A stretch of 64,000 nt of DNA from a virus. The DNA is taken from positions 35,995 through 99,994 of IMG/VR virus record IMGVR_UViG_3300049911_000129. One strand, written 5' to 3'. Shown here one piece after another: positions 20,110 to 63,085 of the stretch (the stretch's first letter is position 1; the number at the start of each line of letters is the position of its first letter). The position numbers and the translations under genes were made by a program. The notes beneath the pieces were generated by a model that was given only the letters and a program-made list of their open reading frames with translations, did not search any database and had not been told where the DNA came from.

Positions 20110-20173
20110 TGATTGCGGAAGACCGATCGAAGAATACCCGCGGGGGACGCGCGGATGACGAGGGAGGCATGAG

Positions 20174-20911: not shown

Positions 20912-20913
20912 CA

Positions 20914-27384: not shown

Positions 27385-27418
27385 TGCCGCGAGGGTATCA
27401 TATTATAGGAGGGGACGC

Positions 27419-29370: not shown

Positions 29371-29372
29371 GC

Positions 29373-30100: not shown

Positions 30101-30111
30101 AGGGAGGCCAG

Positions 30112-31702: not shown

Positions 31703-31749
31703 GCTTTGGGCCCGCGATCCGCGGGCTATCATAGATAGGGGGTTGTGCC

Positions 31750-32235: not shown

Positions 32236-32244
32236 GGAGGAATC

Positions 32245-32841: not shown

Positions 32842-32996
32842 TTGCAAGGGGCCAGGTGAGGGAGCAACGCAGAAAACTACCCCGAGACCCTAATCCGGCG
32901 CGAAGACTTGAGGGAGACGAGGCGGCCGTGCTCGAGCCGCTGATCCCAAGGGGTAACAACGTCCAGTCGCGGGCCGGTAACCTGAGACCCTAGGAG

Positions 32997-33662: not shown

Positions 33663-35201
33663 ATGGAGAGGACCGGCGTACCGTTCGCGGAGTTCCCGGC
33701 GCCGCTCACGGACGAGGAGTCCCGGGACATTATGCTGGCGTGCGCCTCGTTCCCGCACTTCATAGAGAAGATCTTCCCGGCGTCGTTCGAGGGCGAGACG
33801 TTCGTCATGGCGGACCGCGGGAGGCACCCGTTCGCCCTGAGCAAGCTGCACTACATGTGGGCCGGCTTCGCGCAGAAGTACCCGCGGCTCTGCGTCATGG
33901 CCCCCAGGCTGCACCTCAAGAGCACCATCCTCAACCACGCCTTCACGCTCTGGCAGATCTTCAAGGCGTGGGCGTTCGTCGACGGCATAGTCGTCTCGTA
34001 CAAGGAGGACCTGGCGCGCGACCACGTCAAGATCGCCAAGCGCCTGGCCAAGGCCAACCGCTACTTCCGGTTCTTCCAGGACCTGAAGCCGCGCTCCGAG
34101 CACGTCATCAGCTTCGTGTGCGGGTTCGGGACAGGCGAGACGTGGCACGCGGCGGTCCAGGGGATAGGCGTCATGGGGGCAAAGCGAGGGCTCCACCCCA
34201 AGTTCGTCATCTGCGACGACATCCTGAGCGACTACACTAACCCACTCGAGCCGGCCGCGATCGCGAAGATAAACTCCGTGTTCAACAACGTCATACAGTC
34301 GCTGCCCGGGCCGGACGATCCGCTGATAGTGGTCGGGACCCCGCAGTCGTACGACGACACGCTCTACAAGCTGCGCGCCAACGACGAGTTCTTCTGGATC
34401 CGCTGCCCGGCGGAGACGGATCAGGCGGACCCGAACAAGGTCGCGTGGCCGGAGCGGTTCGACAGGCGCGTGCTGAGGCAGATCAGGCGCAGGGTCGGCC
34501 GCACGGCGTACCAGGTCGAGTACCTGCTGGTTCCCCTCATGGCCGTCAACAGCCTGCTGCCGCGCGAGGCCGTGGAGCTATGCGTCGAACCCGGGCTGCA
34601 GGCCTTCTCGCTCGACGAGCCGTTCGAGAATCCGGACGGGTGGCCGGTGTACGGCGGCATGGACATAGGCAAGGAGGTCCACCCGACGCACATCGCGATT
34701 GCGGTCCAGGCGCCGGACGGGACGCTCGTGCAGGTGTACCAGCGGTTCGTGGACCACATGAAGTACGGCCAGCAGGCGAAGCTGGTCAACAAGCTGATGG
34801 AGCACTTCAACATTTCGCGGTTATACTACGACTCGACCAGGGCCGAGCTGGACGAGCGCGGGCTCACCAGGCGCGCGTACGGCCGGAAGTTCACGAAGCA
34901 ACGCAAGCCGCAGCTGGCCCTGCTCCTCGAGCGGAGGATCTTCGCGGGGCCGGACGAGGCAGGCCTGGTGCTGCTCCCTGACCCGCGCCAGGTGAGCCAG
35001 ATATGCGCGGTCAACCCGCAGCTGAAGTCGCTCGAGACCTCGGAGGGCCACGGCGACAGCTTCTGGTCGAACGCCCTCATGGTACAGGCGGCCGAGGACG
35101 GGCCGGCCATGACGGTGCTTGGCGACGCCAACGAGATATTTGGCGGGCAGCGCGGGCGGGCGACGTCAGGGCTCCCGCGGGGCTTCGAGAGTGGACGATA
35201 G
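33663..35201 (+). CDS. terL: terminase large subunit
   Basis: APRLHLKST (Walker A), RGLHP..VICDD (Walker B), VGTP, GGMDIG, HGDSFWS. Confidence 0.92.
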   Translation: MERTGVPFAEFPAPLTDEESRDIMLACASFPHFIEKIFPASFEGETFVMADRGRHPFALSKLHYMWAGFAQKYPRLCVMAPRLHLKSTILNHAFTLWQIFKAWAFVDGIVVSYKEDLARDHVKIAKRLAKANRYFRFFQDLKPRSEHVISFVCGFGTGETWHAAVQGIGVMGAKRGLHPKFVICDDILSDYTNPLEPAAIAKINSVFNNVIQSLPGPDDPLIVVGTPQSYDDTLYKLRANDEFFWIRCPAETDQADPNKVAWPERFDRRVLRQIRRRVGRTAYQVEYLLVPLMAVNSLLPREAVELCVEPGLQAFSLDEPFENPDGWPVYGGMDIGKEVHPTHIAIAVQAPDGTLVQVYQRFVDHMKYGQQAKLVNKLMEHFNISRLYYDSTRAELDERGLTRRAYGRKFTKQRKPQLALLLERRIFAGPDEAGLVLLPDPRQVSQICAVNPQLKSLETSEGHGDSFWSNALMVQAAEDGPAMTVLGDANEIFGGQRGRATSGLPRGFESGR

Positions 35202-35217
35202 GGGGTAAGATCTGAAT

Positions 35218-35442
35218 ATGCCTAACATAAACACGAGGAGGCAGCACCTGGAGGAGGCCAATAGGCGCCGAGCCCTGAGGGAGCGCGCCGGCAGCTTCGG
35301 CAGCCGCCGCGGCCAGTTCATAGACTTCATGAAGAAGCAGGGCCTGCCAGAAGAGGCGCGCGAGGCGCAGCTGCGCAAGTTCGACGAGATGATCGAGACG
35401 ATGGAGGATCAGGCGGAGGAGCAGGCGGTCGATGGTCTCTAA
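35218..35442 (+). CDS. hypothetical protein
   Basis: 74 aa ORF. Confidence 0.55.
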   Translation: MPNINTRRQHLEEANRRRALRERAGSFGSRRGQFIDFMKKQGLPEEAREAQLRKFDEMIETMEDQAEEQAVDGL

Positions 35443-35752
35443 CAGTTCGGGGTTCCAGCTGCCGTCGCCGATGGCGCGCCGCATGCAGCACCCGCAGCTG
35501 CCTGCCGAGCTGCTGGACCTGACTGAGGACGAGTACGCGGCCAAGCTGCGTGAGTGGGGCTACGGCGAGCACGCGATAGAGCAGGAGCTGGTGCGCTGGC
35601 GGGAGTACGTCGATAAGATGGTGCCGAAGCGCGTGGTTCCCGACGTCGAGGACGGCCCGATCAAGGGCAGGCTGTTCGACTCGTGGGTGCAGGCTAGGCG
35701 GCGTAGGCGGAAGCAGAAGGAAGAGGGTGACGATGGCGAGGCGGAAGAGTAG
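35432..35752 (+). CDS. hypothetical protein
   Basis: GGAGG RBS. Confidence 0.6.
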   Translation: MVSNSSGFQLPSPMARRMQHPQLPAELLDLTEDEYAAKLREWGYGEHAIEQELVRWREYVDKMVPKRVVPDVEDGPIKGRLFDSWVQARRRRRKQKEEGDDGEAEE

Positions 35753-36083
35753 CAAGATACCGGGCTCCGGCTACATGCGGCAGCCAGTGTCGGTCGCCGT
35801 GCTAGAGATGGTCGGCCAGTGGCTCATCGTTGTCGAGGACTTCGAGGACCCGACCAGGCCGTCCGGGATCGTGGTCGTGACGCCAGGGACGCTGACGACG
35901 ACGATCGGGACGGTCGTCAAGGCCGGGCCGGAGTGCGAGTTGATCGGCGTCGTCGAGGGGTCGAGGGTCCTGTTCGAGCAGTGGGCCGGAGGGCGCTGGG
36001 CGCTGAAGGACGGCGCGGGACATGACCTGCATGTTCTAATCATGAGCGCCGATTCGATCCTCGCGCTCGTAGAGGAGGGATAG
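35733..36083 (+). CDS. GroES-like co-chaperonin 1
   Basis: SGIVV, GTVVKAGP, GSRVLFEQWAG, IMSADSILA. Confidence 0.75.
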   Translation: MARRKSSKIPGSGYMRQPVSVAVLEMVGQWLIVVEDFEDPTRPSGIVVVTPGTLTTTIGTVVKAGPECELIGVVEGSRVLFEQWAGGRWALKDGAGHDLHVLIMSADSILALVEEG

Positions 36084-38063
36084 ATGGGCGTACTGGACTT
36101 CTTCCGTAGGCCCCAGAGCGGCGTGGCCGCTGCTGCGCCGAGCCCGCAGTTCGGCGGCGAGAAGGGCATGGACTTCTTCTCGTTCCTCGAGTCCCGCCTG
36201 AAGCAGGGCGGGCCGGGGCTGTCGACGGTGCAGTTCGCGCACGACACCATGCTCAAGTCGGCCGCGCAGGCGTCCGGCGGGCTCATAGGCATCAACGACT
36301 ACGGGTTCAAGGGCAAGCGCCAGTACATAGCCGATCGGCGCTACCTGTTGGACCTCTACGTCATCCACTACAACAACGCGGACATCAGGACGGTGACCAC
36401 CCACTTGCGCAACGAGATCTTCCGGCGCGGCATCGAGTGGGAGGCGGCCTTCGAGTGGAAGTGCGGACAGTGCGACAAGGAGTACACCGCCTCCGAGGCG
36501 CGCAAGCTCACGGACAAGGACGGGACCCCGCGGTGCAGGGTGTGCAAGGTCTGGACCAAGAAGGACGCGGACGGGCAGGATGTCCCGCTCGGCGTGGACG
36601 GCGAACCGGCGATAGTGGGGGTCGGTCTCAGCGACAAGCCGCTGCCGGGGGCGCCGGTCAAGCCGCCGCTCTACCAGCCGGACGAGAAGCAGAAGGACAG
36701 GTTCGAGGGGTTCCTGACCGAGGCCAACTACTTCGGGCAGAGCCTCGAGACCGTCCTCAGGGAGTGCGAGGACGACGTCAACACGGTCGACGACGCGTTC
36801 ATATACCTCCGCCCGGAGTACATCATGTCGGAGGAGGACGGGCAGCGCGCGGCCCGCGGCGAGGACGTCCACCCGCGGAAGATCGTGAAGCACGTCCTCA
36901 GGCTCGACCCGGTGCTGCTGGAGTACGACCTCGACTACCGCGGCATCCCCGGCATGCGCCACCACCTGTGCGTCTTCCACCGGGAGAACATCATGGAGGT
37001 GCCGGCCGAGGAGGGGTGGGAAGAGGAGTGGCAGGGCAGGTGCCCCGAGTGCGGGCTCCAGACATACCCGGTCTACTACAAGTACAACGAGCAGTACCTG
37101 CAGGGCGGCTACGGGTCCGCGCAGACGAAGGTCATGTACCTCCTGCGCGACGAGATCATCCACTGGAGCTACTACACGCCGACGGAGCTCTACGGCTACC
37201 CGCCCATCCTGAGCATCTACGAGAAGGCGCTGACGCTCATCGGGATGGACCGGTACGTATACGACTACTTCTACGAGCGCAAGGTCCCGCAGGGCATAAT
37301 CGCGACGACGACGGACGACACGCAGGGCATGGACCAGCGCAAGGCCGCCATCGAGGCGCGCATGCGGCAGGACCCGCACTACATACCGTGGATCGCCGTG
37401 TCGAGCAAGACCGGCCAGGGCAAGACCGAGTTCGTCAGGTTCGCCTACAGCCTGGACGAGCTCAACTACCTGCCGGTCCGCGACGAGATCAGGGAGCGCA
37501 TCGCCGGCCTCTACGGCGTGTCGGCCATATGGATGTCTGACAGCACGGCGGCGGGCGGGCTGAACAACGAGAGCCAGCAGCTGGTCGTCATGAGCCGCGT
37601 GGTCGAGGGCAAGCAGAGGGCGTACCACGAGGCCGTCTTCCCGGCGCTGCTCGCCGCGTTCGGCATCACCGACTGGCACCTGAGGCTGCTGCAGCCTGAG
37701 GAGGTGTCGGAGCTGGCCGAGCTGCAGGTCCGCACGACGAAGATGCAGTGGGCCAGCGGTATGGCCCAGATGGGGTTCGGCATCCGCTACGACCAGGGGG
37801 CCGACGAGTACGAGGTGTACGGCGACGTGAAGCCCGGCACGGAGCGCCCGCAGCAGGGCGGCGAGGGCGGCGGGGCGCCAGGCGGCGCTGCGACTGCGCC
37901 CGGCACGTTCGGGCTGATGGAGAAGGCCGACCCAGGCATGGAGGGCGAGGCCGAGGGCGACGTCGGGGAGGTCATGGAGGAGCCACCGCAGGAGCCGATG
38001 AGCACACGCGGCGACGAGGACGAGGACGCGCGGCTGGGGCTCGAGCCCGGCCTGGAGATCTAG
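36084..38063 (+). CDS. portal protein with Zn-ribbon insertions
   Basis: DDVNTVDDAF, EIIH, YGYPP, RERIAGLYGV, GGLNNE; between TerL and MuF. Confidence 0.85.
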   Translation: MGVLDFFRRPQSGVAAAAPSPQFGGEKGMDFFSFLESRLKQGGPGLSTVQFAHDTMLKSAAQASGGLIGINDYGFKGKRQYIADRRYLLDLYVIHYNNADIRTVTTHLRNEIFRRGIEWEAAFEWKCGQCDKEYTASEARKLTDKDGTPRCRVCKVWTKKDADGQDVPLGVDGEPAIVGVGLSDKPLPGAPVKPPLYQPDEKQKDRFEGFLTEANYFGQSLETVLRECEDDVNTVDDAFIYLRPEYIMSEEDGQRAARGEDVHPRKIVKHVLRLDPVLLEYDLDYRGIPGMRHHLCVFHRENIMEVPAEEGWEEEWQGRCPECGLQTYPVYYKYNEQYLQGGYGSAQTKVMYLLRDEIIHWSYYTPTELYGYPPILSIYEKALTLIGMDRYVYDYFYERKVPQGIIATTTDDTQGMDQRKAAIEARMRQDPHYIPWIAVSSKTGQGKTEFVRFAYSLDELNYLPVRDEIRERIAGLYGVSAIWMSDSTAAGGLNNESQQLVVMSRVVEGKQRAYHEAVFPALLAAFGITDWHLRLLQPEEVSELAELQVRTTKMQWASGMAQMGFGIRYDQGADEYEVYGDVKPGTERPQQGGEGGGAPGGAATAPGTFGLMEKADPGMEGEAEGDVGEVMEEPPQEPMSTRGDEDEDARLGLEPGLEI

Positions 38064-48485: not shown

Positions 48486-48818
48486 ATGATAAGGCTGGTG
48501 GCCCAGCTGGCGCGCGGGTTCGCGCGCTACGTTGGTCTGACGTGGATCCTGGGGTTCGGCGGCATGGCGCTAGCGGCCGCCGGTAGGAGGGACCTCGCCG
48601 GACTCATGTGGGTGTCGCTCGGCGCCGGTAGCGTCGGGGTGGCGTTCGACCGCGCGACCGCTGGCGACTTGCATTTTGACAAGGTGCGCCACGGGTCGTT
48701 GACTGAGGAGGAGGTCGACTTCCTGGTTGGTCATCTGCCGTTCCTCGCGCTCGGGCTCCTGGCCTTGGCGGTCGGGGAGGGGCGCAAGTACGGACGGGAG
48801 GGTGGCCGAGAGGCTTAA
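48486..48818 (+). CDS. membrane protein
   Basis: 3 hydrophobic segments; 3' end overlaps tRNA-Ser. Confidence 0.55.
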   Translation: MIRLVAQLARGFARYVGLTWILGFGGMALAAAGRRDLAGLMWVSLGAGSVGVAFDRATAGDLHFDKVRHGSLTEEEVDFLVGHLPFLALGLLALAVGEGRKYGREGGREA

Positions 48819-48883
48819 GGCGCCGCGTTGCTAGCGCGGAGGTCCGAAAGGGCACGGGGGTTCGAATCCCTCCCCTTCCGCCA
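48796..48883 (+). tRNA. tRNA-Ser(GCT)
   Basis: cloverleaf, long variable arm, CCA. Confidence 0.92.
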
Positions 48884-48900
48884 TGAGAGGAGCGGTAGCG

Positions 48901-49041
48901 ATGGCTAACCTATGCGGCAAGTGCAATGGTCCGGCTATCATGAAGATGACGGACGGCAAGGCCACGGTCAAGGTCTGCGCGTACCACTGGCATATGCTGT
49001 CTGGGCAGGGCTGGAAGCAGGTCTACCCGAAGGGGCGGTAG
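48901..49041 (+). CDS. small Zn-finger-like protein
   Basis: GAGGAG RBS; MANLCGKC...CAYH. Confidence 0.55.
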   Translation: MANLCGKCNGPAIMKMTDGKATVKVCAYHWHMLSGQGWKQVYPKGR

Positions 49042-49106
49042 CTCAGAGGCAGAGCGCCCGGCTGTCGACCGGGAGGTCGCGGGTTCGATGCCCGTCCGCC
49101 CCGCCA
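49032..49106 (+). tRNA. tRNA-Asp(GTC)
   Basis: CCCGG-CTGTCGA-CCGGG, CCA. Confidence 0.92.
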
Positions 49107-49109
49107 AGT

Positions 49110-49199
49110 TGGGGAGTGGCCGAGTCTGGGTTATGGCGACCGTCTCGAAAACGGTTGGTCCGAAAGGGCACGGGGGTTCGAATCCCTCCTCCCCAGCCA
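49110..49199 (+). tRNA. tRNA-Ser(CGA)
   Basis: ACCGT-CTCGAAA-ACGGT, long variable arm. Confidence 0.92.
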
Positions 49200-49208
49200 T
49201 TATGATGA

Positions 49209-49286
49209 CACCGTCCCGCAACGGACGAGGCTTAGGGCGGTAACCAGTCCGCATGGGAAGCGAGCGGTTGACCAGGGGCGGTGCCA
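49209..49286 (+). ncRNA. CCA-ended non-tRNA structured RNA
   Basis: 9-bp terminal stem CACCGTCCC/GGGGCGGTG then CCA; no T-loop. Confidence 0.5.
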
Positions 49287-49289
49287 GTG

Positions 49290-49366
49290 GCCGGAGTAGC
49301 TCAAGTGGGGAGAGCGGCTGTCTTGTAAACAGCGGGTTGGGGGTTCGAGGCCCTCCTCCGGCTCCA
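49290..49366 (+). tRNA. tRNA-Thr(TGT)
   Basis: GCTGT-CTTGTAA-ACAGC. Confidence 0.92.
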
Positions 49367-49377
49367 GTATGGTGCGG

Positions 49378-49453
49378 TGCGGGGTGGAGCAATGGTTAGC
49401 TCGGCGGCCTCATAAGCCGTAGGTTGAGGGTTCGAATCCCTCCCCCGCTACCA
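49378..49453 (+). tRNA. tRNA-Met(CAT), initiator-like
   Basis: CTCATAA loop; unpaired 1:72; GCGGGGTGGAGCA start. Confidence 0.88.
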
Positions 49454-49456
49454 CAA

Positions 49457-49533
49457 GCCGAGGTAGCTCAGCTAGGTAGAGCGCCTGGTTGAAGGCCAGG
49501 GCGTCGGCGGTCCGATTCCGTCCCTCGGCACCA
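49457..49533 (+). tRNA. tRNA-Phe(GAA)
   Basis: CCTGG-TTGAAGG-CCAGG; T-loop TCCGA. Confidence 0.9.
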
Positions 49534-49534
49534 A

Positions 49535-49613
49535 GGGCCCGTAGCTCAGTTGGATTCAGAGCGCCTGCCTTCGAAGCAGGGCGTCGGGGGTTCGAGTCCC
49601 TCCGGGCCTTCCA
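49535..49613 (+). tRNA. tRNA-Arg(TCG)
   Basis: CCTGC-CTTCGAA-GCAGG. Confidence 0.92.
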
Positions 49614-49614
49614 T

Positions 49615-49690
49615 AGGGGCGTAGCTCAATTGGGAGAGTGCCTGTTTTACAAGCAGGAAGTTGGGGGTTCGACTCCCTCCGCCCCTACCA
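49615..49690 (+). tRNA. tRNA-Val(TAC)
   Basis: CCTGT-TTTACAA-GCAGG. Confidence 0.92.
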
Positions 49691-49691
49691 C

Positions 49692-49766
49692 GGGCCGGTA
49701 GCTTAATGGGAGAGCGGGTGCCCTGCAAGCATTCAGGCGGGAGTTCGAATCTCCCCCGGTCCACCA
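49692..49766 (+). tRNA. tRNA-Ala(TGC)
   Basis: G3:U70 pair; loop CCTGCAA. Confidence 0.85.
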
Positions 49767-49779
49767 TCTTAACAAACGT

Positions 49780-49856
49780 GGCTCTCTAGCCCAATTGGTA
49801 GAGGCATCTGCCTTAGAAGCAGATCAGTCAGAGTTCGAATCTCTGGGGGGCCACCA
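49780..49856 (+). tRNA. tRNA-Leu(TAG), short variable loop
   Basis: TCTGC-CTTAGAA-GCAGA. Confidence 0.88.
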
Positions 49857-49859
49857 TGA

Positions 49860-49936
49860 GCGCCAGTAGTTCAATTAGGTAGAGCGCCTGCCCTCCAAGC
49901 AGGTTGTTGGGGGTTCGATTCCCCCCTGGCGCTCCA
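49860..49936 (+). tRNA. tRNA-Gly(TCC)
   Basis: CCTGC-CCTCCAA-GCAGG; U73. Confidence 0.9.
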
Positions 49937-49938
49937 GT

Positions 49939-50013
49939 GCGGGGGTAGCTCAGCGGCAGAGCGCCTGCTTGCCATGCAGGAGGTCGTGGGTTCGAGCCCC
50001 ATTCCCCGCTCCA
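49939..50013 (+). tRNA. tRNA-Gly(GCC)
   Basis: CCTGC-TTGCCAT-GCAGG. Confidence 0.92.
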
Positions 50014-50014
50014 G

Positions 50015-50091
50015 AGGCGGGTAGCTCAGTCTGGTAGAGCAACGGCCTTATAAGCCGTATGTCGGAGGTCCGATTCCTCCCCCGCCTACCA
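50015..50091 (+). tRNA. tRNA-Ile(TAT)
   Basis: ACGGC-CTTATAA-GCCGT; T-loop TCCGA. Confidence 0.88.
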
Positions 50092-50167
50092 GGGCCGGTA
50101 GCTCAGAGGATAGAGCGGCGGTTTCCTAAACCGCGGGTCGCGGGTTCGAGTCCCGCTCGGCCTTCCA
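50092..50167 (+). tRNA. tRNA-Arg(CCT)
   Basis: GCGGT-TTCCTAA-ACCGC. Confidence 0.92.
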
Positions 50168-50168
50168 G

Positions 50169-50243
50169 AGGCGGGTAGCTCAAAGGCAGAGCAGGGGTCT
50201 GATATGCCTCAGGTTGGAGGTTCGAGCCCTCCCTCGCCTACCA
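50169..50243 (+). tRNA. tRNA-Ile(GAT)
   Basis: GGGGT-CTGATAT-GCCTC. Confidence 0.9.
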
Positions 50244-50246
50244 CCC

Positions 50247-50321
50247 ACCGGGGTGGCGCAATGGTAGCGCGGCTCCCTGTTAAGGAGACGGTTGCAGGTC
50301 CGAGTCCTGCCCCCGGTGCCA
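50247..50321 (+). tRNA. tRNA-Asn(GTT)
   Basis: CTCC-CTGTTAA-GGAG; T-loop TCCGA. Confidence 0.88.
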
Positions 50322-50322
50322 A

Positions 50323-50396
50323 GGCCCGCTCGTCTAAGGGCAGGATGCCTCCCCCTCAAGGAGGCGGTGTCGGTTCGAATCCGGCGCGGGCTACCA
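50323..50396 (+). tRNA. tRNA-Glu(CTC)
   Basis: CCTCC-CCCTCAA-GGAGG. Confidence 0.9.
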
Positions 50397-50406
50397 ATAA
50401 GATCGC

Positions 50407-50471
50407 GGGGGACTGTGCGAGGCCGGGGGTACGCGACCCCGGTACGAGGGTAAACTCCCTCCAGCCCCCCA
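50407..50471 (+). ncRNA. D-arm-less tRNA-like element
   Basis: acceptor-like stem + CCA, GCCGGGG/CCCCGGT stem, GAGGG-TAAACT-CCCTC T-like arm. Confidence 0.55.
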
Positions 50472-50479
50472 TCATAGTT

Positions 50480-50556
50480 GGCGTCGTAGCCCAATTGGCA
50501 GAGGCACCGGCTTCAAGACCCGGACAGTGCAGGTTCGAATCCTGCGGGCGCCACCA
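50480..50556 (+). tRNA. tRNA-Leu(CAA), short variable loop
   Basis: loop TTCAAGA; Leu-type D arm. Confidence 0.85.
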
Positions 50557-50557
50557 T

Positions 50558-50633
50558 ACGGACGTGGCTCAGCGGCGAGAGCGGCCGTCTCCAAAACGGC
50601 TGGTCGGAGGTTCGAGTCCTCCCGTCCGTGCCA
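50558..50633 (+). tRNA. tRNA-Trp(CCA)
   Basis: GCCGT-CTCCAAA-ACGGC. Confidence 0.92.
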
Positions 50634-50708
50634 GGGGGCGTAGCTCAGCGGTAGAGCGGCGGACTCTTAATCCGCGCGGCGGGGGTTCGAATCCCTCCGC
50701 CCCTACCA
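50634..50708 (+). tRNA. tRNA-Lys(CTT)
   Basis: GCGGA-CTCTTAA-TCCGC. Confidence 0.92.
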
Positions 50709-50709
50709 T

Positions 50710-50784
50710 CAGCGCGGTAGTGTAAGGGTAGCACGATAGGTTGTGGCCCTGTTAGTGCGGGTTCGAATCCCGCCCCGCTGACCA
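50710..50784 (+). tRNA. tRNA-His(GTG)
   Basis: ATAGG-TTGTGGC-CCTGT; irregular acceptor stem. Confidence 0.82.
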
Positions 50785-50785
50785 T

Positions 50786-50859
50786 TCTGGGGTAGTTTAG
50801 AGGTAGAACGGGTGGCCCTGGACCATCAGGCGGAGGTTCGAGTCCTTCCCCCAGAGCCA
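50786..50859 (+). tRNA. tRNA-Gln(CTG)
   Basis: GGTGG-CCCTGGA-CCATC. Confidence 0.88.
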
Positions 50860-50874
50860 GGAATCGAGGCGTAT

Positions 50875-51066
50875 ATGCGAGAGTTGGTGGTCGTCTTGGT
50901 CGCGGCGTCGGCGGCGGCGCTCCTCGCCCGGTGGATGTGGGATGCGCTGGTGACGAAGTGGCTGCTGTGGCTGGTCATGGACAGCGGCATCCCGCTGGGC
51001 CGGGCAGGGCCGTGGGTGTTCGCGCTGGCCATAGGGCGGTGGCCGCACAAGAGGCCGAGCGGGTAG
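50875..51066 (+). CDS. small membrane protein
   Basis: GAGG RBS; hydrophobic, Trp-rich. Confidence 0.55.
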   Translation: MRELVVVLVAASAAALLARWMWDALVTKWLLWLVMDSGIPLGRAGPWVFALAIGRWPHKRPSG

Positions 51067-51069
51067 CGT

Positions 51070-51147
51070 CTGGGCGTAGCTCAGTCAGGGCAGAGCTCCT
51101 GGCTTGGGACCAGGGGGCCGGCGGTTCGAATCCGTCCGCCCAGACCA
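51070..51147 (+). tRNA. tRNA-Pro(TGG)
   Basis: CCTGG-CTTGGGA-CCAGG. Confidence 0.92.
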
Positions 51148-51185
51148 CAACTGCGGTATAATATAGATGGAAGGGAACCGCCCGA

Positions 51186-51290
51186 TGGCAGCGGGGGTGA
51201 GGCAGGGCGAGGCGAAGCGCCCTCGAGGCGCTCTCAATCGGTTGCCGAACCGGCCTGGTGGATGAGTCAGGGAAGTCCTGCCCCCCTGCA
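51186..51290 (+). ncRNA. candidate multibranch structured RNA
   Basis: follows GGTATAAT (51155); closing GCAG..GGGG..GGCAGG/CCTGCC-CCCCTGC; three inner hairpins. Confidence 0.5.
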
Positions 51291-51297
51291 CGATGAT

Positions 51298-51321
51298 GGG
51301 CCGTTGGCCGAGCGGCTGAAG
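51298..51321 (+). pseudogene. 5' tRNA fragment
   Basis: GGGCCGT-TG-GCCGAGCGGCTGAAG = acceptor 5' strand plus D arm, broken off before the HNH RBS. Confidence 0.45.
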
Positions 51322-51329
51322 AGGTAACA

Positions 51330-51755
51330 ATGACGGGGCGTAAGGACGCAGTTCTCGGGATGGCGCACGGTACGGCCTGCGGTCGGCTGCGGAAGGCGGT
51401 GCTATTCTCCCTGATTCAGCAACTCGGATTGGCCGCCTGCGCGCGGTGCGGCGGCGAGATTGCGTCGGCGGAGGAGCTCTCGCTCGACCACGTGGTCGAT
51501 TGGGAGGGGGCAGAAGACCCGTGTGGTGTATTCTTCGATCTCGACAACGTGACGTTCAGTCATTTGGCCTGTAACAACAGGGCGCGCTCCAAGCGCGAGT
51601 ACTGCGCGAAGGGGCACGCGTATACCAGCGCGGGAGTATTGGAGCGGGGCTCCGATGGAGTAGTGCGTCGCCGGTGTGGCATTTGCAAACGGGCGGCGAA
51701 TCGAGATAGCATGCAGCGGATCCGTGGCAGAGTGGCCGATTGCGGCAGCCTGTAG
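51330..51755 (+). CDS. HNH endonuclease (putative homing)
   Basis: CARCG, SLDH, SHLACN, C.KGH, RRCGIC. Confidence 0.8.
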   Translation: MTGRKDAVLGMAHGTACGRLRKAVLFSLIQQLGLAACARCGGEIASAEELSLDHVVDWEGAEDPCGVFFDLDNVTFSHLACNNRARSKREYCAKGHAYTSAGVLERGSDGVVRRRCGICKRAANRDSMQRIRGRVADCGSL

Positions 51756-51807
51756 AGCTGCTCTCCTTAACTGGGGCGCGCCTGTTCGAATCGGGCCGGA
51801 TCCACCA
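51718..51807 (+). tRNA. tRNA-Tyr(GTA)
   Basis: GCAGC-CTGTAGA-GCTGC, long variable arm; overlaps HNH 3' end. Confidence 0.9.
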
Positions 51808-51856: not shown

Positions 51857-52708
51857 ATGGGTGCGATGGTATTCAACACGAGGGCGCTGGGGCGCTTCTG
51901 GTACTGGATCGAGGAGCGGCACCGCATCTACATGAAGCGTCAGGCCGGCGAGCTGGCCCCGTGGACGCTCGACCCGGTGCTGCGCGACTACTTCTTCTGC
52001 AACGTCTTCAGGGAGCTGGACCCGGGGACCGTGTGGCTCAGGCAGGGCTGGACCGACCGGCACGGGTACGGGTCCGACGCGTTCGACGGCCCGACGCTCC
52101 TGTTCAACATCATCAAGTACCGGCTGTTCGGGACCGAGCGCGCCGGGGCGGCACTCGGCTACCAGACTGCGTGGGACGACTCCATGGCGGCCATCACCAC
52201 CCGACTGCTCACCCAGGCGCGGATGGACGGGCCGATCTACACGGCGGCCTACATGCACTCCGGCGGGCTGGCGGACCACGTCAAGCTGCTCGGCGACGTC
52301 TGGGCAGACAGGCACAACCTCTACGGGAGGATCGTCGCGGACCGCACGATCCAGGGGGCGACGAAGATCCTGACGGAGATCCCGCACTTCGGGCCGTTCA
52401 TGGCGTACGAGGTGGCCACGGACCTCAGGCACACGCCGGTGCTGGACGGTGCGCCGGACACGATGACGTGGGCCAACCCGGGCCCAGGCTCCTGGCGCGG
52501 GCTGAGGAGGATCTTCCCATACGTCAGCAAGGCGGAGGCCGTGGCGGCGATGGCACTGCTGCTGCTCTGGTCGCAGAGCAAGCTGGCGGCCTACGTGCCG
52601 CCCCTCGAGATGCGCGACATCGAGCACAGCCTCTGCGAGTTCGACAAGTACGAGAGGGCCTCGCAGCCCGGCGTGGTCGGGCTGAGGCGGTATGGGGTGA
52701 AGGCATGA
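51857..52708 (+). CDS. aGPT-Pplase1 / 5-hmdU DNA kinase helical-domain family protein
   Basis: ERHRIY.KR.AG..PWT.DPVL..Y.FCNVFRELD; AY; GPFMAYEVATDL; GPGS.RGL; DIEHSLCEFDKY. Confidence 0.8.
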   Translation: MGAMVFNTRALGRFWYWIEERHRIYMKRQAGELAPWTLDPVLRDYFFCNVFRELDPGTVWLRQGWTDRHGYGSDAFDGPTLLFNIIKYRLFGTERAGAALGYQTAWDDSMAAITTRLLTQARMDGPIYTAAYMHSGGLADHVKLLGDVWADRHNLYGRIVADRTIQGATKILTEIPHFGPFMAYEVATDLRHTPVLDGAPDTMTWANPGPGSWRGLRRIFPYVSKAEAVAAMALLLLWSQSKLAAYVPPLEMRDIEHSLCEFDKYERASQPGVVGLRRYGVKA

Positions 52709-53412
52709 TCACACTACTGGAGGTCCTGGTGGGCAGCCGGGCGTACGGCACGGCGACGGACGGAAGCGATATAGACAGGCGAGTCGTCTTCGCCCACGGC
52801 ACGCGCGACCTGCTGTCCGTGGACGGCCGCGGCAACTGCCCGTTGAAGGACACTGTCTGGGACGAGAAGGCCCACGGCGGCGACGAGGACGTGACCGGCT
52901 GGGAGGTCGGCAAGTTCGTCAAGCTCGCGCTCAACTGCAACCCGACGATCCTCGAGGTGCTTTGGGCGCCTGACTACAGCGAGCCGCACTACCAGGGCAC
53001 GAAGCTGCGGCGGATCAGGCGCGCGTTCCTGAGCCGCGATCGCATCTTCGAGTCGTTCAAGGGCTACGCGTCGAACCAGGCCAAGAAGATGCTCTTCGAG
53101 CCCGGCGCCGGCATCTGGACCGTGCGCAACTGGAAGTTCGCCGAGGCCTACATGCGCTCCCTCTATCAGGGCGTGCAGCTGCTGGGGACCGGCGAGCTGC
53201 CGGTGGACTTCACCGACAAGCGGCACGTCAACATCATGGGGACGCTCCAGATGATCAAGCGCGGCGAGGTGCCTAAGAGTCAAGTGATCGAGGCGGCGGA
53301 CGCGCTCGAGCGCATGATGCTCACGGCCTACACGGCCAGCGAGGTACCCGGCGAGCCCGACCTGGTCACGATCAACGACTACCTTACGGAGATGCGGTTC
53401 GCCATGTGGTGA
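52705..53412 (+). CDS. Pol-beta-family nucleotidyltransferase (RlaP/YcgL-like)
   Basis: VGSRAYG....SDID; KF..LAL.CNP.ILE.L; F.GYA..Q. Confidence 0.85.
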   Translation: MITLLEVLVGSRAYGTATDGSDIDRRVVFAHGTRDLLSVDGRGNCPLKDTVWDEKAHGGDEDVTGWEVGKFVKLALNCNPTILEVLWAPDYSEPHYQGTKLRRIRRAFLSRDRIFESFKGYASNQAKKMLFEPGAGIWTVRNWKFAEAYMRSLYQGVQLLGTGELPVDFTDKRHVNIMGTLQMIKRGEVPKSQVIEAADALERMMLTAYTASEVPGEPDLVTINDYLTEMRFAMW

Positions 53413-53429
53413 GCCGAGGGGAGGAAGCA

Positions 53430-53720
53430 ATGAAGATCGGTCCGTACAAGAGCGGCTTCATCTGGGTGGCAGACGGCATCGGCGAGGTGCTGTCCGGCCT
53501 CTTCGACTTCGACGTGAGCCTCAAGATCTCGCTGCTCGAGATAGCCGTCGGCCTGCAGGTGTTCGGAGTCGGGTTCGACCTCTGGGTCGGCGCGAGCGAC
53601 TTCTACGGCCACGCGCAGGTCGGGCTGTCCCTCTACACGCCGGTCGTCGGCCTCAACGTCGAGGGCGGGGTGAAGTGGGTCGGGAAGCTCGACCGCCCCG
53701 AGGAGTCGGGCGAAGACTAG
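53430..53720 (+). CDS. hypothetical beta-rich protein
   Basis: GGAGG RBS. Confidence 0.55.
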   Translation: MKIGPYKSGFIWVADGIGEVLSGLFDFDVSLKISLLEIAVGLQVFGVGFDLWVGASDFYGHAQVGLSLYTPVVGLNVEGGVKWVGKLDRPEESGED

Positions 53721-55524: not shown

Positions 55525-55820
55525 ACCCGCCGGTGGAGCCGGGCCAGATCTGGGCCAGCAAGGACGAGCGCGACATGGTGCTGGTGGTCGTGCCGCTCAA
55601 GCGGCCGGCGCCGTACAGCGGCGGGACGACGGAGAAGCGCTACGAGCGGAGGACGTTCAGGATCGCCCGCATAGTCGGGCAGAAGGCGGTGGTGGTCAAC
55701 ACGGTGACCGGCCGCAGCACGGGGATCTCGCTCAGGCGGCTGAAGTATAGCCTGGGCTCGCGGGGGTATGAGCTGGTAACGGACATAGACAGGGAAGGGG
55801 TAGATGGCGATGGTATCTAA
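55521..55820 (+). CDS. hypothetical protein
   Basis: VEPGQIWA.KD.R SH3-like start. Confidence 0.6.
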   Translation: MNPPVEPGQIWASKDERDMVLVVVPLKRPAPYSGGTTEKRYERRTFRIARIVGQKAVVVNTVTGRSTGISLRRLKYSLGSRGYELVTDIDREGVDGDGI

Positions 55821-56328
55821 GATCGTTACGGAGAAGGGCACAAGGCGGCCGGTGCTGCACCAGGTGTGCGCCGAGGTGCTGGACGAGGACGAGGCGATCT
55901 ACGGCGAGGCCCGGGCGGTGGCGGCCAAGCTCGTCGACACGCTTAAGGCGCACCCCGATGCGGTCGGCTTGTCGGCCCCGCAGATCGGGGCCTTGGTGCG
56001 CGTCATCGCGGTGCGGACCGACTTCGAGCATAACGAGCAGGTCGTCGCGCTGTTGAACCCCGTGGTCGAGCGCAGGGTAGGGTGGCGGATGGTCGACGAG
56101 GGCTGCCTGTCGCTCCCTAAGCGGACGTTCAGGGTGCAGCGCTCGCAGGTTGTGTGCGTACGCGCCCAGAGCTCGTTGGACGGCGCCACGGTGAAGATGA
56201 CCGCGCGTGGCATGCTGGCCCAGGCGCTCGAGCACGAGATAGACCACCTCGATGGGGTCCTCGTGTCGGACAAGGGGACCGAGCGCGACCTGGCGGCCAA
56301 GGTCATAGACCCCTGGGCGAAGAAGTAG
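55804..56328 (+). CDS. def: peptide deformylase
   Basis: GLSAPQIG, EGCLS, HEIDHLDG. Confidence 0.95.
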   Translation: MAMVSKIVTEKGTRRPVLHQVCAEVLDEDEAIYGEARAVAAKLVDTLKAHPDAVGLSAPQIGALVRVIAVRTDFEHNEQVVALLNPVVERRVGWRMVDEGCLSLPKRTFRVQRSQVVCVRAQSSLDGATVKMTARGMLAQALEHEIDHLDGVLVSDKGTERDLAAKVIDPWAKK

Positions 56329-59511: not shown

Positions 59512-59910
59512 GTGGGCAAGCTACTGCTTCTGAAGGTCTTCTACCTGTCCGGCGGCTTTTACTCCGGGTGGCAGCAGCGGCTCATGCGCGAGTGCGCTGG
59601 GCTCAGGGCGGTCAACCCGGAGACCGACGGCAGGCAGAACGCCATCTACGCCTTCGTGGAGGATGACCTGTCGGCCATAGACGCCGCGGACGGCGTCATC
59701 GCGAGGTGGGACGCCTACCCGCACGTGGAGGGTATGATAGCTGAGGTCGGGTACGCGACCGCGAAGGGCAAGCCGGTGCTGCTGATCCTGGACGGCGTGG
59801 AGGTGCCGAATGCCTTCGTCCTCGGGCTGGCCAAGCGGGTCTTCGTGGGCATGGACGCGTTCATCGCCTGGTGGAACGGTAGGGTACACACTAAGGCAGG
59901 TGTGATGTGA
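59512..59910 (+). CDS. nucleoside 2-deoxyribosyltransferase-like protein 2
   Basis: YLSGG, W, NP, DL.AI, EVGYA.AKGKPV. Confidence 0.75.
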   Translation: MGKLLLLKVFYLSGGFYSGWQQRLMRECAGLRAVNPETDGRQNAIYAFVEDDLSAIDAADGVIARWDAYPHVEGMIAEVGYATAKGKPVLLILDGVEVPNAFVLGLAKRVFVGMDAFIAWWNGRVHTKAGVM

Positions 59911-61082
59911 GAGTGATTCCGAAGAGCAACACCCAGGGTCCGTGCGTGGACATATACAATTGGGCTGACGACATCGAGGGCGGCGCACTCGAGCAGGCGT
60001 TCAACATCGCAAAGCTCCCGTTCGCGTTCCACCACGTGGCCGTCATGGCCGACGGGCACCAGGGATTCGGCATGCCGATCGGCGGCGTGCTTGCGACGCG
60101 CGGGGTGATAGTCCCGAACGCGGTCGGCGTCGACATCGGCTGCGGGATGGCGGCCGTCAGGACCAACCTGTTCGACTACGACCTCCAGCCGGACGCGCTC
60201 AAGCAGGTCATGGCGATCGTGCGCGGGACGGTGCCGCTCGGCCTCGGCCAGCGGCAGGCGGAGCCGCAGGACTGGGAGGGGTTCGACCGCGCCCCGCGCC
60301 TGTTCGTCATCCAGCGGCAGCTGGAGGCGGCCAGGAAGCAGCTCGGGACGCTCGGTGCGGGCAACCACTTCATCGAGATACAGGCCGAGGAGCACGGACC
60401 GGTATGGGTGATGGTCCACTCCGGCAGCCGCAACTTCGGGCTGCAGGTCGCCGGCGAGTACCACAAGGCGGCCAAAGTCATGTGCGAGCGCTGGCACTCC
60501 AAGATCCCGACGCCCGACCTGGCGTTCCTGCCGATAGAGACGCTGGAGGGCAAGGACTATCTGGAGGGCATGGGATACTGCCTGGAGTTCGCCAGGGAGA
60601 ACCGCGCCGTCATGATGCGGCACGTCATCGAGGCGCTCGATCAGATCACTGGCGCGGTGCGTGTCGTGGTGTCGCTTGACGTCCACCACAACTACGCCCG
60701 CTGGGAGCAGCACTACGGGCAGAGCGTCCTCGTCCACCGGAAGGGTGCGACGTATGCGGGCGCCGGGTCGGTTGGCATCATACCCGGCTCGATGGGCACC
60801 GCGAGCTACATCGTCCGCGGGCTTGGCAGCCAGGCGAGTTTCGACTCGTGTTCGCACGGGGCTGGCAGGCGCATGAGCAGGACGGCGGCGAGGCGGGACC
60901 TCGACCTCAACCTTGAGCAGGCCAAGATGACGGCGCTCGGGGTGGTCGGCGGGCCGCGGACGGCCGCGGACCTCGACGAGGCGCCCGGAGCGTACAAGGA
61001 CATAGACGTGGTCATGGCCGCGCAGAGGGACCTCGTGGAGGTCAGTAACAAGCTGCGGCCGCTGGCCAGTCTGAAGGGATAG
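59907..61082 (+). CDS. rtcB: RtcB RNA ligase
   Basis: DGHQG.GMPIG, VGVDIGCG, GTLG.GNHFIE, HSGSR, HHN, HRKGAT, PGSMG, SHGAGR, EAP.AYK. Confidence 0.95.
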   Translation: MRVIPKSNTQGPCVDIYNWADDIEGGALEQAFNIAKLPFAFHHVAVMADGHQGFGMPIGGVLATRGVIVPNAVGVDIGCGMAAVRTNLFDYDLQPDALKQVMAIVRGTVPLGLGQRQAEPQDWEGFDRAPRLFVIQRQLEAARKQLGTLGAGNHFIEIQAEEHGPVWVMVHSGSRNFGLQVAGEYHKAAKVMCERWHSKIPTPDLAFLPIETLEGKDYLEGMGYCLEFARENRAVMMRHVIEALDQITGAVRVVVSLDVHHNYARWEQHYGQSVLVHRKGATYAGAGSVGIIPGSMGTASYIVRGLGSQASFDSCSHGAGRRMSRTAARRDLDLNLEQAKMTALGVVGGPRTAADLDEAPGAYKDIDVVMAAQRDLVEVSNKLRPLASLKG

Positions 61083-61308: not shown

Positions 61309-61487
61309 ACAATGAGCCGGTGTGGCTGACGGAGTACTGGGACATGTACATTGACCTCGTCACCGAGGCGACGGCCAGCGTGTGGGAGCTCCACGGCGGC
61401 GGGTCCTTTGTCGCGATGCTGCTGGTGCACTCGGCGGAGTTCACCGCGGAGATCTCGGCGGCAACCTTGGAGGCTATGGGCGTATGA
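61305..61487 (+). CDS. small hypothetical protein
   Basis: ATGA overlaps at both ends. Confidence 0.5.
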   Translation: MNNEPVWLTEYWDMYIDLVTEATASVWELHGGGSFVAMLLVHSAEFTAEISAATLEAMGV

Positions 61488-63085
61488 AGGGCGCGGCGTA
61501 CTATGACAGGGTCTATAGGTCGGGAAAGTACGGGATAAGCGAGGGGCGCGCGCGGGTCGTGGCCGGGCTGTGCCGCGGGTCCGTGGTGGACCTCGGCTGC
61601 GGCGAGGGGATACTCGGTAGGTTGTACAGCGGGCGGTATGTTGGCGTCGACTTCTCGTTCCAGGCCATTGGGATCGCTACGGAGCGTGATCCGCACTTGT
61701 CGGACGTGCACCGGTATCTACGGCTTGACTTCCTGACGGACCCGCTGCCGAAGGTAGAGGCCGACACGGTGGTGCTGGGCGAGGTGCTCGAGCATCTGAC
61801 CGCCGCGGCTCAACACAAGTTGCTCAAGAGGATCACGACGGCATATCCTAAGGCGCGCCTGGTCGCGACGGTCCCCGAAGGTGACTCAATACCAGACCCG
61901 TCGCACGTACGGACGTTCGAGCGCGAGGATCTGCTGTTCGCCATGCTCTCGCACTACACATGGGCGACGCTGCGCAGGTGCCCGAAGCCATGGCTCTGCG
62001 CGACCGCGAGCCAGGAATGCGCCCTGTCCGTGGCGTTGATAGTCAAGGACGAGGAGCCCATGCTCGAGGGCTGCCTGGCGTCGCTCCGCGACATCTGGGA
62101 CGAGCTCGTCATCACCGACACCGGATCGACGGACCGGACCATCGAGATAGCCGAGGAGTTCGGCGCGCGCATCGAGCATTTCCCGTGGATCAACGACTTC
62201 GCGGCGGCTAGGAACTACTGCGAGTCCAAGTGCACCGGGAACTACGTCTACTGGATCGACGGCGACGAGCAGCAGGTCGAGGGACACGATGTGATACTCG
62301 AGATAGTCGCTGCGGGCAAGGCGGACGGGGTACAGCCGGTACTCGTGCTGTCGCGATCGCCCAATGGCAAGCCGGCGAAGACGTTCGCGCGCCAGGAGCT
62401 GCTCCACAAGCTCGACGGCAAGTGGCGGTGGATCGGGGCGGCCCACAACTACCTGGAGGGGCCAGGCCACTACATCGACCGCCGCATCGTGGCGGAGCAC
62501 TTCGACAGGCCGGGCGGCGACAGGCCGAACCTGGCCGACATGCTCGGGGCGCTGCGCGGCAACCTCGGCGACGGCTTCGACGAGCGGCACATGTACTACC
62601 TGCTCCGGCAGCACTGGTACCAGAGACACTACCAGGAGACCATCGCGCTCGCCGACCTCGCGCTTGCGCAGCCGCCCAGCTGGCCGATCCAGCGGTCCGA
62701 GATAGCCTTGACGGCCGGGCACGCCTGGAAGGCTCTGAAGCGCCTGCCGGAGGCGAGGCTCGCGTACCTCCGCGCGCTGAAGGAGTACGGGGAATGGGCC
62801 GAGCCGTACTACTGGCTCGGGATGCTGTGCTATGAGAAGGGCGACTGGCGCGGCGGGGCGGCCTGGTTCGCAGCGGCCCTTCCGTTCGACCCGCCGACCA
62901 ACTACTTTACCGATCGGTCCATCTACGACTGGCGTCGGTACGATCAGCTGGCCGTCTGCCTGTACAAGCTAGGGCGCTACGGCGAGGCTCTGCTGTACGG
63001 CGCCACGGCTCTCAACGCGCTGCCCGACGACCCGCGCATCAAGGACAACTTCGAGCACTACAAGAAGGGGGCCAAACGCGCGTAA
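61484..63085 (+). CDS. SAM methyltransferase + GT2 glycosyltransferase + TPR fusion
   Basis: VVDLGCGEG, EVLEHL; IVKDEE, DTGSTD.T, DFAAARN, IDGDE; TPR helices. Confidence 0.88.
   Translation: MKGAAYYDRVYRSGKYGISEGRARVVAGLCRGSVVDLGCGEGILGRLYSGRYVGVDFSFQAIGIATERDPHLSDVHRYLRLDFLTDPLPKVEADTVVLGEVLEHLTAAAQHKLLKRITTAYPKARLVATVPEGDSIPDPSHVRTFEREDLLFAMLSHYTWATLRRCPKPWLCATASQECALSVALIVKDEEPMLEGCLASLRDIWDELVITDTGSTDRTIEIAEEFGARIEHFPWINDFAAARNYCESKCTGNYVYWIDGDEQQVEGHDVILEIVAAGKADGVQPVLVLSRSPNGKPAKTFARQELLHKLDGKWRWIGAAHNYLEGPGHYIDRRIVAEHFDRPGGDRPNLADMLGALRGNLGDGFDERHMYYLLRQHWYQRHYQETIALADLALAQPPSWPIQRSEIALTAGHAWKALKRLPEARLAYLRALKEYGEWAEPYYWLGMLCYEKGDWRGGAAWFAAALPFDPPTNYFTDRSIYDWRRYDQLAVCLYKLGRYGEALLYGATALNALPDDPRIKDNFEHYKKGAKRA

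Follow-up and report, generated by a model that had tools for sequence, protein, structure and literature searches.

To our knowledge, the C5 hypermodifications of DNA that are built with the kinase, amino acid:DNA transferase (AADT) and Pplase toolkit all lie on thymine, and the known cytosine hypermodifications are glycosylations; the literature consulted describes no kinase, AADT or Pplase that acts on 5-hydroxymethylcytosine (5hmC). The viral DNA analyzed here, a window of 64,000 nucleotides comprising bases 35995-99994 of a 99,994-bp IMG/VR contig (IMGVR_UViG_3300049911_000129), encodes one member of this toolkit, an aGPT-Pplase of clade 1 (gene hel; all coordinates are those of the window), in a record whose only thymidylate synthase (TS) homologue is of the cytosine type. 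Related combinations recur in other viruses, and thymine-type hypermodification machinery is thus repeatedly coupled to cytosine-type hydroxymethylases.

51857-52708, + strand: hel, aGPT-Pplase clade 1 / PF18723 protein, uninterrupted open reading frame (ORF), 283 aa

The family to which hel belongs, PF18723, is the former 'aGPT-Pplase clade 1' and now carries the Pfam name 'HMUDK_hel' (5-hmdU DNA kinase, helical domain), a name that is misleading for stand-alone PF18723 proteins. The experimentally shown 5-hydroxymethyldeoxyuridine DNA kinase (5-HMUDK) is a separate P-loop protein, represented by M6 gp54 and PaMx11 gp49, and the shown transferase is the clade 2 protein, PF18724, of M6 (gp51), PaMx11 (gp46) and ViI (gp247) (PMC8989533). 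The clade-1 protein of M6, gp55, was dispensable for reconstitution in vitro (PMC8989533), and we found no activity assigned to any clade-1 member in the literature. The Pfam name probably goes back to SP10 gp186, the only listed kinase-Pplase fusion (PMC5889632). The closest described proteins, M6 gp55 and PaMx11 gp50, share with the hel product its size, its stand-alone architecture and all family-invariant residues, but their setting is different: known members have a P-loop 5-hmdU DNA kinase on one side and an Asn-type dUMP hydroxymethylase on the other (PaMx11 gp50 is flanked by the kinase gp49 and the TS gp51), whereas hel follows a tRNA array, adjoins a nucleotidyltransferase (NTase) gene and belongs to a phage whose only TS is Asp-type.

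The hel product matches PF18723 with an E value of 1.7e-46 (159.3 bits against a gathering cut-off of 25, confirmed on a six-frame translation) over residues 10-272 and profile positions 3-278 of 281, and the 99,994-bp record contains no other protein of PF18723. A further match is to phrog_2396 (E 1.8e-44), a PHROG with no assigned function. The gene looks functional because its GC content at third codon positions (GC3) is 0.95, its frame is intact and its stop overlaps the start of the next gene; the GC3 resembles that of surrounding genes, and there are no frameshifts. It encodes an intact and probably catalytic clade-1 aGPT-Pplase. A Shine-Dalgarno-like AAGGAAAGG lies 11 nt upstream of the start, and a second in-frame ATG at 51866 offers an alternative start. 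Homologues number about 2,400, nearly all of them stand-alone proteins of 270-320 aa (longer forms: three), and identity is 34-38% to the proteins of M6-like phages and 35% to PaMx11 gp50. The closest homologue among 5.8 billion proteins is 52% identical, compared with 70-90% for the relatives of neighbouring genes; together with four sequences of 48-52% identity (P0002-P0005), the hel product forms a well-supported subclade. Scans of viral, metagenome and genome contigs returned no relative above 45% identity, and a near-identity DNA search of a phage collection and a sequence search of the PDB returned no match.

An AlphaFold2 model built on 52 homologues (mean predicted local distance difference test score, 93) contains 13 helices arranged in an all-helical fold of the helix-hairpin-helix kind, like that of DNA glycosylases. 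Its best PDB match is the AADT PaMx11 gp46 (8z2n; Z 12.1, 209 residues superposed with a root-mean-square deviation of 3.5 A); next come the queuosine-nucleotide glycosylase QNG1 (Z about 10.5) and the helix-hairpin-helix glycosylases Ogg, AlkA and EndoIII (Z 8-10). Foldseek alone gave E 0.03 for the model, and the AADT match emerged after VIA re-alignment; identity over the structurally aligned part is about 12%. The hel product keeps all 26 residues that do not vary in the 52-sequence family alignment, including R21, H22, N49, R52, D55, T58, R89, E185, D189, D201, W205, E251, R253, E256, C260 and E261. E256 and C260 sit in the block EHSLCEFDKY, where the motif E256-H-S-L-C260 matches E243-T-I-L-C247 of gp46, a correspondence based on motif, position and the overall ranges of the superposition, not on a residue-level alignment. 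In gp46, whose substrate is 5-phosphomethyl-dU, E243 and T244 hold a metal that touches O4 of the flipped base, and C247 attacks C6 (PMC11472151). Clade 1 keeps the catalytic dyad of its paralogue; therefore, by analogy, Cys-C6 chemistry on a flipped pyrimidine would be reasonable to expect of it. The hel product resembles the clade 2 AADTs (PaMx11 gp46 PUGT, M6 gp51, ViI gp247) in having the E-x-x-L-C motif at the equivalent place, but it differs in that it has no sequence-level match to PF18724 or gp46. Two assignments were rejected: that of a P-loop 5-HMUDK, because the protein holds only the helical PF18723 domain, and that of a PF18724 AADT, because PF18724 gave no match and hhalign of the family alignment against gp46 returned E 0.1 with negligible probability.

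Around this conserved core, the protein departs from the family at several near-invariant places. It carries the substitutions N92G and T96A, and it has lost the C-terminal GEGxPR, its tail reading QPGVVGLR. A five-residue loop after the (F/Y)T.A(H/Y)M motif, which carries a Lys in 304 of the 314 homologues examined, is deleted. The same deletion occurs in the PF18723 proteins of a TARA contig (L136, 1358-2251) and of a further locus (L018); since the tree places these two and the hel product in separate, well-supported clades, the loop was lost twice independently. An Asp-type TS accompanies each of the three loop-less proteins. The missing Lys loop was considered as a marker of cytosine-type members and rejected as a rule, because records G055, G072 and G076 combine an Asp-type TS with a neighbouring member that still has the loop; it is suggestive only.

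The evidence for a cytosine-type substrate begins with the TS homologue and the genes around it, 23 kb from hel:

26926-27384, + strand: all-alpha NTP pyrophosphatase of the dimeric dUTPase_2 family, candidate dCTPase (PF08761, 4.9e-12)
27419-28483, + strand: thymidylate-kinase-like P-loop protein, presumed dNMP kinase for the modified nucleotide (FEGADGTGKTT; weak AAA_28 match)
28480-29370, + strand: TS homologue, Asp-type (PF00303), only TS-family gene in the record
29528-30100, + strand: nucleoside 2-deoxyribosyltransferase (NDT)-like protein downstream of the TS (PF05014, 6.1e-13), 79% identity in the sister phage G003

The TS motif reads RSNDVWLGWPYD, with Asp at the position of Asn177 in E. 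coli ThyA, and the protein also contains LDVPC. The equivalents of ThyA L143, D169 and N177 are Asp144, Asp170 and Asp178. A dCMP hydroxymethylase is recognized by Asp at N177, an acidic residue at L143 and retention of Asp at D169, where Asn instead marks 5-hydroxy-dCMP synthases (PMC13326640). Judged by these residues, the TS homologue carries the dCMP-hydroxymethylase signature; assignment as a 5-hydroxy-dCMP synthase was rejected, the D169 equivalent being Asp. Its nearest solved relative is the CMP hydroxymethylase MilA (4.5e-31; true thymidylate synthases give about 1e-15). Its Asp recurs at the Asn177 position in the TS homologues of actinophage DSL-LC01, Gordonia phage Phendrix, Bacillus phage G and the Manatee Spring phages, whereas Asn occupies the position in the proven dUMP hydroxymethylases of SP8 and SP10 and in PaMx11 gp51.

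In its contiguous NTP pyrophosphatase, P-loop kinase-like gene and L143D/D169/N177D TS, the module resembles the pre-replicative 5hmC pathway of T4 (dCTPase gp56, dCMP hydroxymethylase gp42 and dNMP kinase gp1). It differs in its TS, which resembles MilA and phage 'pyrimidine hydroxymethylases' more closely than T4 gp42, and in having a downstream enzyme that belongs to the thymine-hypermodification type. In L136 and in record G001, the equivalent slot before the Asp-type TS holds a MazG/PRA-PH-type enzyme, and a homologue of the kinase in phage DSL-LC01, annotated as thymidylate kinase, also stands beside an Asp-type TS. The kinase was rejected as a 5-HMUDK because it has no significant similarity to PaMx11 gp49. 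PDB sequence searches with the kinase, the NDT-like protein and the NTase yielded nothing useful. The succession of a MilA-like TS and an NDT-family gene (28480-30100), kept in G003, repeats the family pairing of MilA and MilB in mildiomycin biosynthesis, in which MilB releases free 5-hydroxymethylcytosine.

The record as a whole is 79% complete according to CheckV and 'linear', with no terminal repeats found, a GC content of about 66% and essentially all genes on the + strand. Six-frame hidden Markov model searches of the whole record revealed no second TS, no ThyX, no dCMP deaminase and no TET/JBP enzyme, and no match to the AADT profile PF18724 at E<=1. They also found no TET-associated-type glycosyltransferase (TAGT), T4-type glucosyltransferase families not being among those searched for. 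The record holds no homologue of the 5-HMUDK PaMx11 gp49, the sole AAA_33-like P-loop protein being the thymidylate-kinase-like enzyme at 27419. Since the encoded enzymes can provide no C5-hydroxymethyl pyrimidine other than 5hmC, this base, or a derivative of it, is the most likely substrate. An earlier note, drawn up from the letters of the window, had assigned hel to the aGPT-Pplase1/5-hmdU DNA kinase helical family, had said that the synthase looks cytosine-specific and had recognized neither an Asn-type dUMP hydroxymethylase nor an AADT in the window. The full-length PF18723 match bears out the first of these statements and the Asp at the Asn177 position the second, and the third now extends to the entire 100-kb record. 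As for the note's alternative that partners lie outside the window, the rest of the record holds no second TS and no AADT, and such partners may lie in the roughly 21% of the genome that is unseen.

To place the pairing of hel with an Asp-type TS, we surveyed it from both sides. Among 189 loci holding the PF18723 family (80 viral, 80 metagenome and 29 genome, all <=45% identical to the hel product), 134 have a TS within about 10 kb; 133 of these are Asn-type (dUMP), and the single Asp-type case is the TARA contig L136. The dominant marine order is UvrD, endonuclease-V-like, hel, TAGT, Asn-type TS, PD-(D/E)XK and PolA; because this cassette contains neither kinase nor AADT, the family is tied to hydroxymethyl-pyrimidine synthesis and not to the kinase. 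These cassettes of uncultured phages are like the present genome in coupling the family to a hydroxymethylase in the absence of a P-loop DNA kinase, but they differ in the TAGT that adjoins the gene, none being found in this record. For the reverse scan, Asp-type TS sequences served as queries, and the 80 viral records retrieved were without exception Asp-type; four of them hold the family and 76 do not, the two nearest relatives of this phage (G002 and G003) among the latter. Since so many Asp-type records lack it, the family is dispensable for the Asp-type TS pathway.

In total, six other viral records pair an Asp-type TS with the family (G001, G055, G072, G075, G076 and L136). Three of them, with 28-32% GC, have an operon of Asp-type TS, hel and TAGT (G055 27323-30975, L303; G076 18801-21905, L304; G072 1216-3942, L305), which mirrors the hel-TAGT-Asn-type TS cassette common in marine phages. 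G055 and G076 carry a thymidylate-kinase-like gene and a dCMP deaminase elsewhere on the contig, with an NTP pyrophosphatase beside them in G055. G075, a complete genome of 41 kb with terminal repeats, encodes an Asp-type TS and a deaminase, together with a divergent family member and a kinase-like fusion of 534 aa, one part of which is 5-HMUDK-like. G001, which contains locus L018, has an NTP pyrophosphatase, an Asp-type TS, a thymidylate-kinase-like kinase, a deaminase and a family member, and the 12-kb locus L136 an NTP pyrophosphatase, an Asp-type TS and a family member. Each of the five records searched whole (G001, G055, G072, G075 and G076) has a single TS. The pairing of an Asp-type TS with the family is rare, but real and recurrent.

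The sister phage G003 (IMGVR_UViG_3300032053_000017; 106 kb, 59% GC) keeps the gene order of this genome, its proteins being 60-85% identical (matches at E<=1e-8 with half of the frame aligned). It shares the cluster of NTP pyrophosphatase, kinase, Asp-type TS and NDT, and has one TS locus, Asp-type. Within this cluster (G003 28281-36263 = L289:8281-16263), a 5.7-kb insert between the NTP pyrophosphatase and the thymidylate-kinase-like gene encodes an inositol-3-phosphate synthase (Ino1; 7e-143 to 1gr0), an AADT (PF18724, 9e-11) with an intact E-V-M-L-C motif and a 5-HMUDK-like kinase (2e-10 to PaMx11 gp49), together with a C5-cytosine methyltransferase and two unknown ORFs. The insert is a candidate module for a cyclitol-linked cytosine hypermodification. 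In the two sister phages, different members of the thymine-hypermodification toolkit have thus been attached to one Asp-type hydroxymethylase module. The hel gene is a lineage-specific addition to the hydroxymethylase pathway, not its core.

The surroundings of hel in the window are as follows:

48796-51807, + strand: 24 tRNA genes (ARAGORN) ending in tRNA-Tyr (51718-51807), left border of the hel-NTase indel
51330-51755, + strand: HNH endonuclease (PF01844; phrog_23251, 1.2e-20), between tRNA-Pro and tRNA-Tyr, just upstream of hel
52705-53412, + strand: RlaP-type NTase of the Pol-beta superfamily (PF10127, 5.9e-23; phrog_388)
53406-53720, + strand: conserved 104-aa ORF, right border of the hel-NTase indel

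The ATG of the NTase overlaps the TGA of hel (ATGA). In G003, tRNA-Tyr is followed directly by a homologue of the ORF at 53406-53720 (tblastn of the stop-to-stop frame 53277-53717, which contains the ORF, matches G003 60155-60505), and both hel and the NTase are absent; the junction being continuous there, the two genes together constitute one two-gene indel of 1.55 kb. Homologues of the NTase are common among those Streptomyces, Mycobacterium and Gordonia phages that are rich in tRNA genes and have no member of the hel family. Its metagenomic relatives reach 78-92% identity, compared with 52% at best for hel, and a pattern scan of viral contigs for relatives of the NTase returned none. An RNA-repair-type set surrounds the tRNA array, consisting of an RNA ligase (16178-16900), the NTase (52705-53412) and an NDT-like gene with RtcB (59512-61082), this second NDT-like gene lying directly upstream of RtcB. 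Because RtcB and an RNA ligase are encoded in the genome, a role of the NTase in RNA repair fits better than a functional pair with hel.

Taken together, these data lead us to favour, at slightly below an even chance, the reading that the hel product acts after replication on 5hmC, or a derivative of it, in phage DNA and gives rise to a chemically undescribed cytosine modification. The 5hmC part of this reading gains comparative support from the six other records in which an Asp-type TS accompanies the family, and from G003, where a kinase and an AADT stand beside the same TS. We envisage that 5hmC would be made before replication by the T4-like module of NTP pyrophosphatase (26926), dNMP kinase (27419) and Asp-type hydroxymethylase (28480). 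By analogy with PaMx11 gp46, the helix-hairpin-helix scaffold would then flip a C5-substituted pyrimidine out of the replicated phage DNA; Glu256 would hold a metal or serve as general acid, Cys260 would attack C6, and the C5-methylene substituent would be exchanged or removed through an exocyclic-methylene intermediate. The earlier note had proposed that the enzyme may activate 5hmC. The activating-kinase part of that proposal falls, PF18723 being a paralogue of the AADT, and the 5hmC part, strengthened by the comparison across viruses, remains plausible but unproven. In place of activation, we suggest by analogy that hel may carry out C6-thiolate chemistry on a 5hmC-derived base.

A further-reaching proposal, which we consider rather doubtful, is that clade-1 aGPT-Pplases are not specific for thymine and that the hel product, possibly primed by the translationally coupled NTase instead of a kinase, converts 5hmC through the C6-thiol/exocyclic-methylene route into a cytosine derivative unknown to chemistry or, by reduction, into 5-methylcytosine. 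Such a reduction would parallel the conversion of 5-hydroxymethyluracil (5hmU) to thymine in PhiW-14-type phages, a conversion called 'still unknown' (PMC5889632). Borohydride turns the clade-2 intermediate into thymidine. It is speculation that clade 1 itself takes part in the 5hmU-to-thymine conversion at the DNA level, which would fit its near-universal presence in phages that make 5hmU.

Several observations weigh against action on 5hmC. No clade-1 member has a demonstrated activity, gp55 of M6 being dispensable in vitro. The catalytic motif of hel is the family consensus, the metal in the paralogue contacts O4 of thymine, and the motif displays no adaptation to cytosine. Almost every TS near the family is of the dUMP type, most Asp-type TS records do without the family, and several of the Asp-type phages that carry it encode a dCMP deaminase, which could turn 5-hydroxymethyl-dCMP into 5-hydroxymethyl-dUMP. 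Finally, about 21% of the genome is unseen, and hel stands far from the TS module with no recognizable activating partner, neither a P-loop 5-HMUDK nor a TAGT.

Some of these points are what one would expect if the enzyme worked on 5hmU in DNA. An Asn-type hydroxymethylase or T-dioxygenase encoded in the unseen fifth of a 79% complete, 'linear' record could then provide the base, or a host or unseen deaminase could do so by acting on 5-hydroxymethyl-dCMP, and the Asp-type TS would be unrelated or merely upstream. The Asn-type character of 133 of the 134 neighbouring TSs and the consensus catalytic motif of hel agree with this, as does the membership of every cultured phage that has the family in a thymidine-hypermodifying group (such as M6-like and ViI-like phages, SP10 and SH-Ab 15599); moreover, dCMP deaminases lie beside Asp-type TS genes in G001, G055, G076, DSL-LC01, Phendrix and others. 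We nevertheless hold a 5hmU substrate, the main alternative, to be unlikely, given that 100 kb contain no second TS, ThyX, deaminase or TET/JBP gene, that the 106-kb sister G003 likewise has one TS locus, Asp-type, that the complete G075 has only an Asp-type TS plus a family member, and that in three records the family stands directly beside the Asp-type TS in one operon.

The isolation of hel could also mean that it is an orphan, recently acquired, cut from its partners and now inactive, decaying or recruited to another task such as binding modified DNA or countering host defence. Its absence from both nearest relatives, with the tRNA-Tyr/ORF 53406 junction intact in G003, its best homologue at 52% when those of its neighbours reach 70-90%, the changes N92G and T96A with the losses of the Lys loop and GEGxPR, and the adjoining HNH endonuclease are consistent with such an origin. 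However, all 26 invariant residues, including E256 and C260, are kept, the structure model is confident, and a GC3 matching the genome in a frame free of frameshifts does not suggest decay; the loop deletion, having arisen independently in L136 and L018, whose genes are likewise in Asp-type TS phages, looks more like adaptation. An inactive or repurposed orphan is thus distinctly improbable. We regard as very unlikely a two-enzyme module in which the overlapping NTase would nucleotidylylate the hydroxymethyl group and the PF18723 enzyme would displace the nucleotide. The ATGA overlap, the joint absence of both genes from G003 as one 1.55-kb indel, and the enzymes that derivatize hydroxyl groups next to the family elsewhere (the PaMx11 P-loop kinase, the SP10 gp186 kinase fusion (PMC5889632) and TAGT) would fit it, but not one of the 189 loci with the family (160 viral or metagenome, 29 genome) contains a homologue of the NTase, and this type of NTase is common in tRNA-rich actinophages without the family. 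The identities of their relatives (78-92% for the NTase, none above 52% for hel) indicate different histories of the two genes, and RtcB and the RNA ligase fit the RNA-repair role after which PF10127 is named.

The occurrence of the thymine-type toolkit beside Asp-type (dCMP) hydroxymethylases in several unrelated viral lineages points to an undescribed class of cytosine modifications. It takes three forms, namely a clade-1 Pplase in the present genome, a kinase, AADT and inositol-phosphate synthase in G003, and operons of clade 1 with TAGT elsewhere, and with the present genome the pattern now includes an actinophage-like lineage of high GC. Modified bases of this kind are relevant to evasion of restriction and CRISPR, to the sequenceability of metagenomic DNA and to enzymatic labelling of 5hmC. 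The result also provides a handle on clade 1, which might explain how 5hmU is turned back into thymine. As a lone gene without a partner, the hel locus is itself a weak entry point for experiments; G003 and the TS-hel-TAGT operons offer better starting points.

Divergent PF18723 homologues (24-30% identity) were also found in Alphaproteobacteria, CPR and archaeal metagenome-assembled genome contigs (L180-L202), with no TS nearby, and constitute a cellular subfamily with a different context. Other genes of the record touch on base modification or its repair:

20914-21339, + strand: Vsr-type mismatch endonuclease (PF03852, 2e-23)

Bacterial Vsr enzymes repair T:G mismatches that arise from deaminated 5-methylcytosine, and a Vsr would fit a genome rich in C5-modified cytosine, in which deamination gives T:G or hmU:G mismatches. 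At the thresholds used for the G003 comparison, the Vsr gene has no match there, nor has a 567-aa protein (61382-63085) that combines a SAM methyltransferase, a GT2 glycosyltransferase and TPR repeats and could be a DNA or cell-surface glycosyltransferase. The record also encodes two N6/N4 methyltransferases. The family-A DNA polymerase (13007-15643) has an N-terminal domain of the uracil-DNA glycosylase (UDG) superfamily, and such UDG-PolA fusions have been discussed for phages with T-modified genomes (PMC13697223). The fusion was rejected as a marker of a T-modified genome and is not diagnostic, since it is most closely related, at about 35% identity, to ordinary polymerases of actinophages and Pseudomonas phages. 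A peptide deformylase (55804-56328; PF01327, 3e-31) is conserved in G003.

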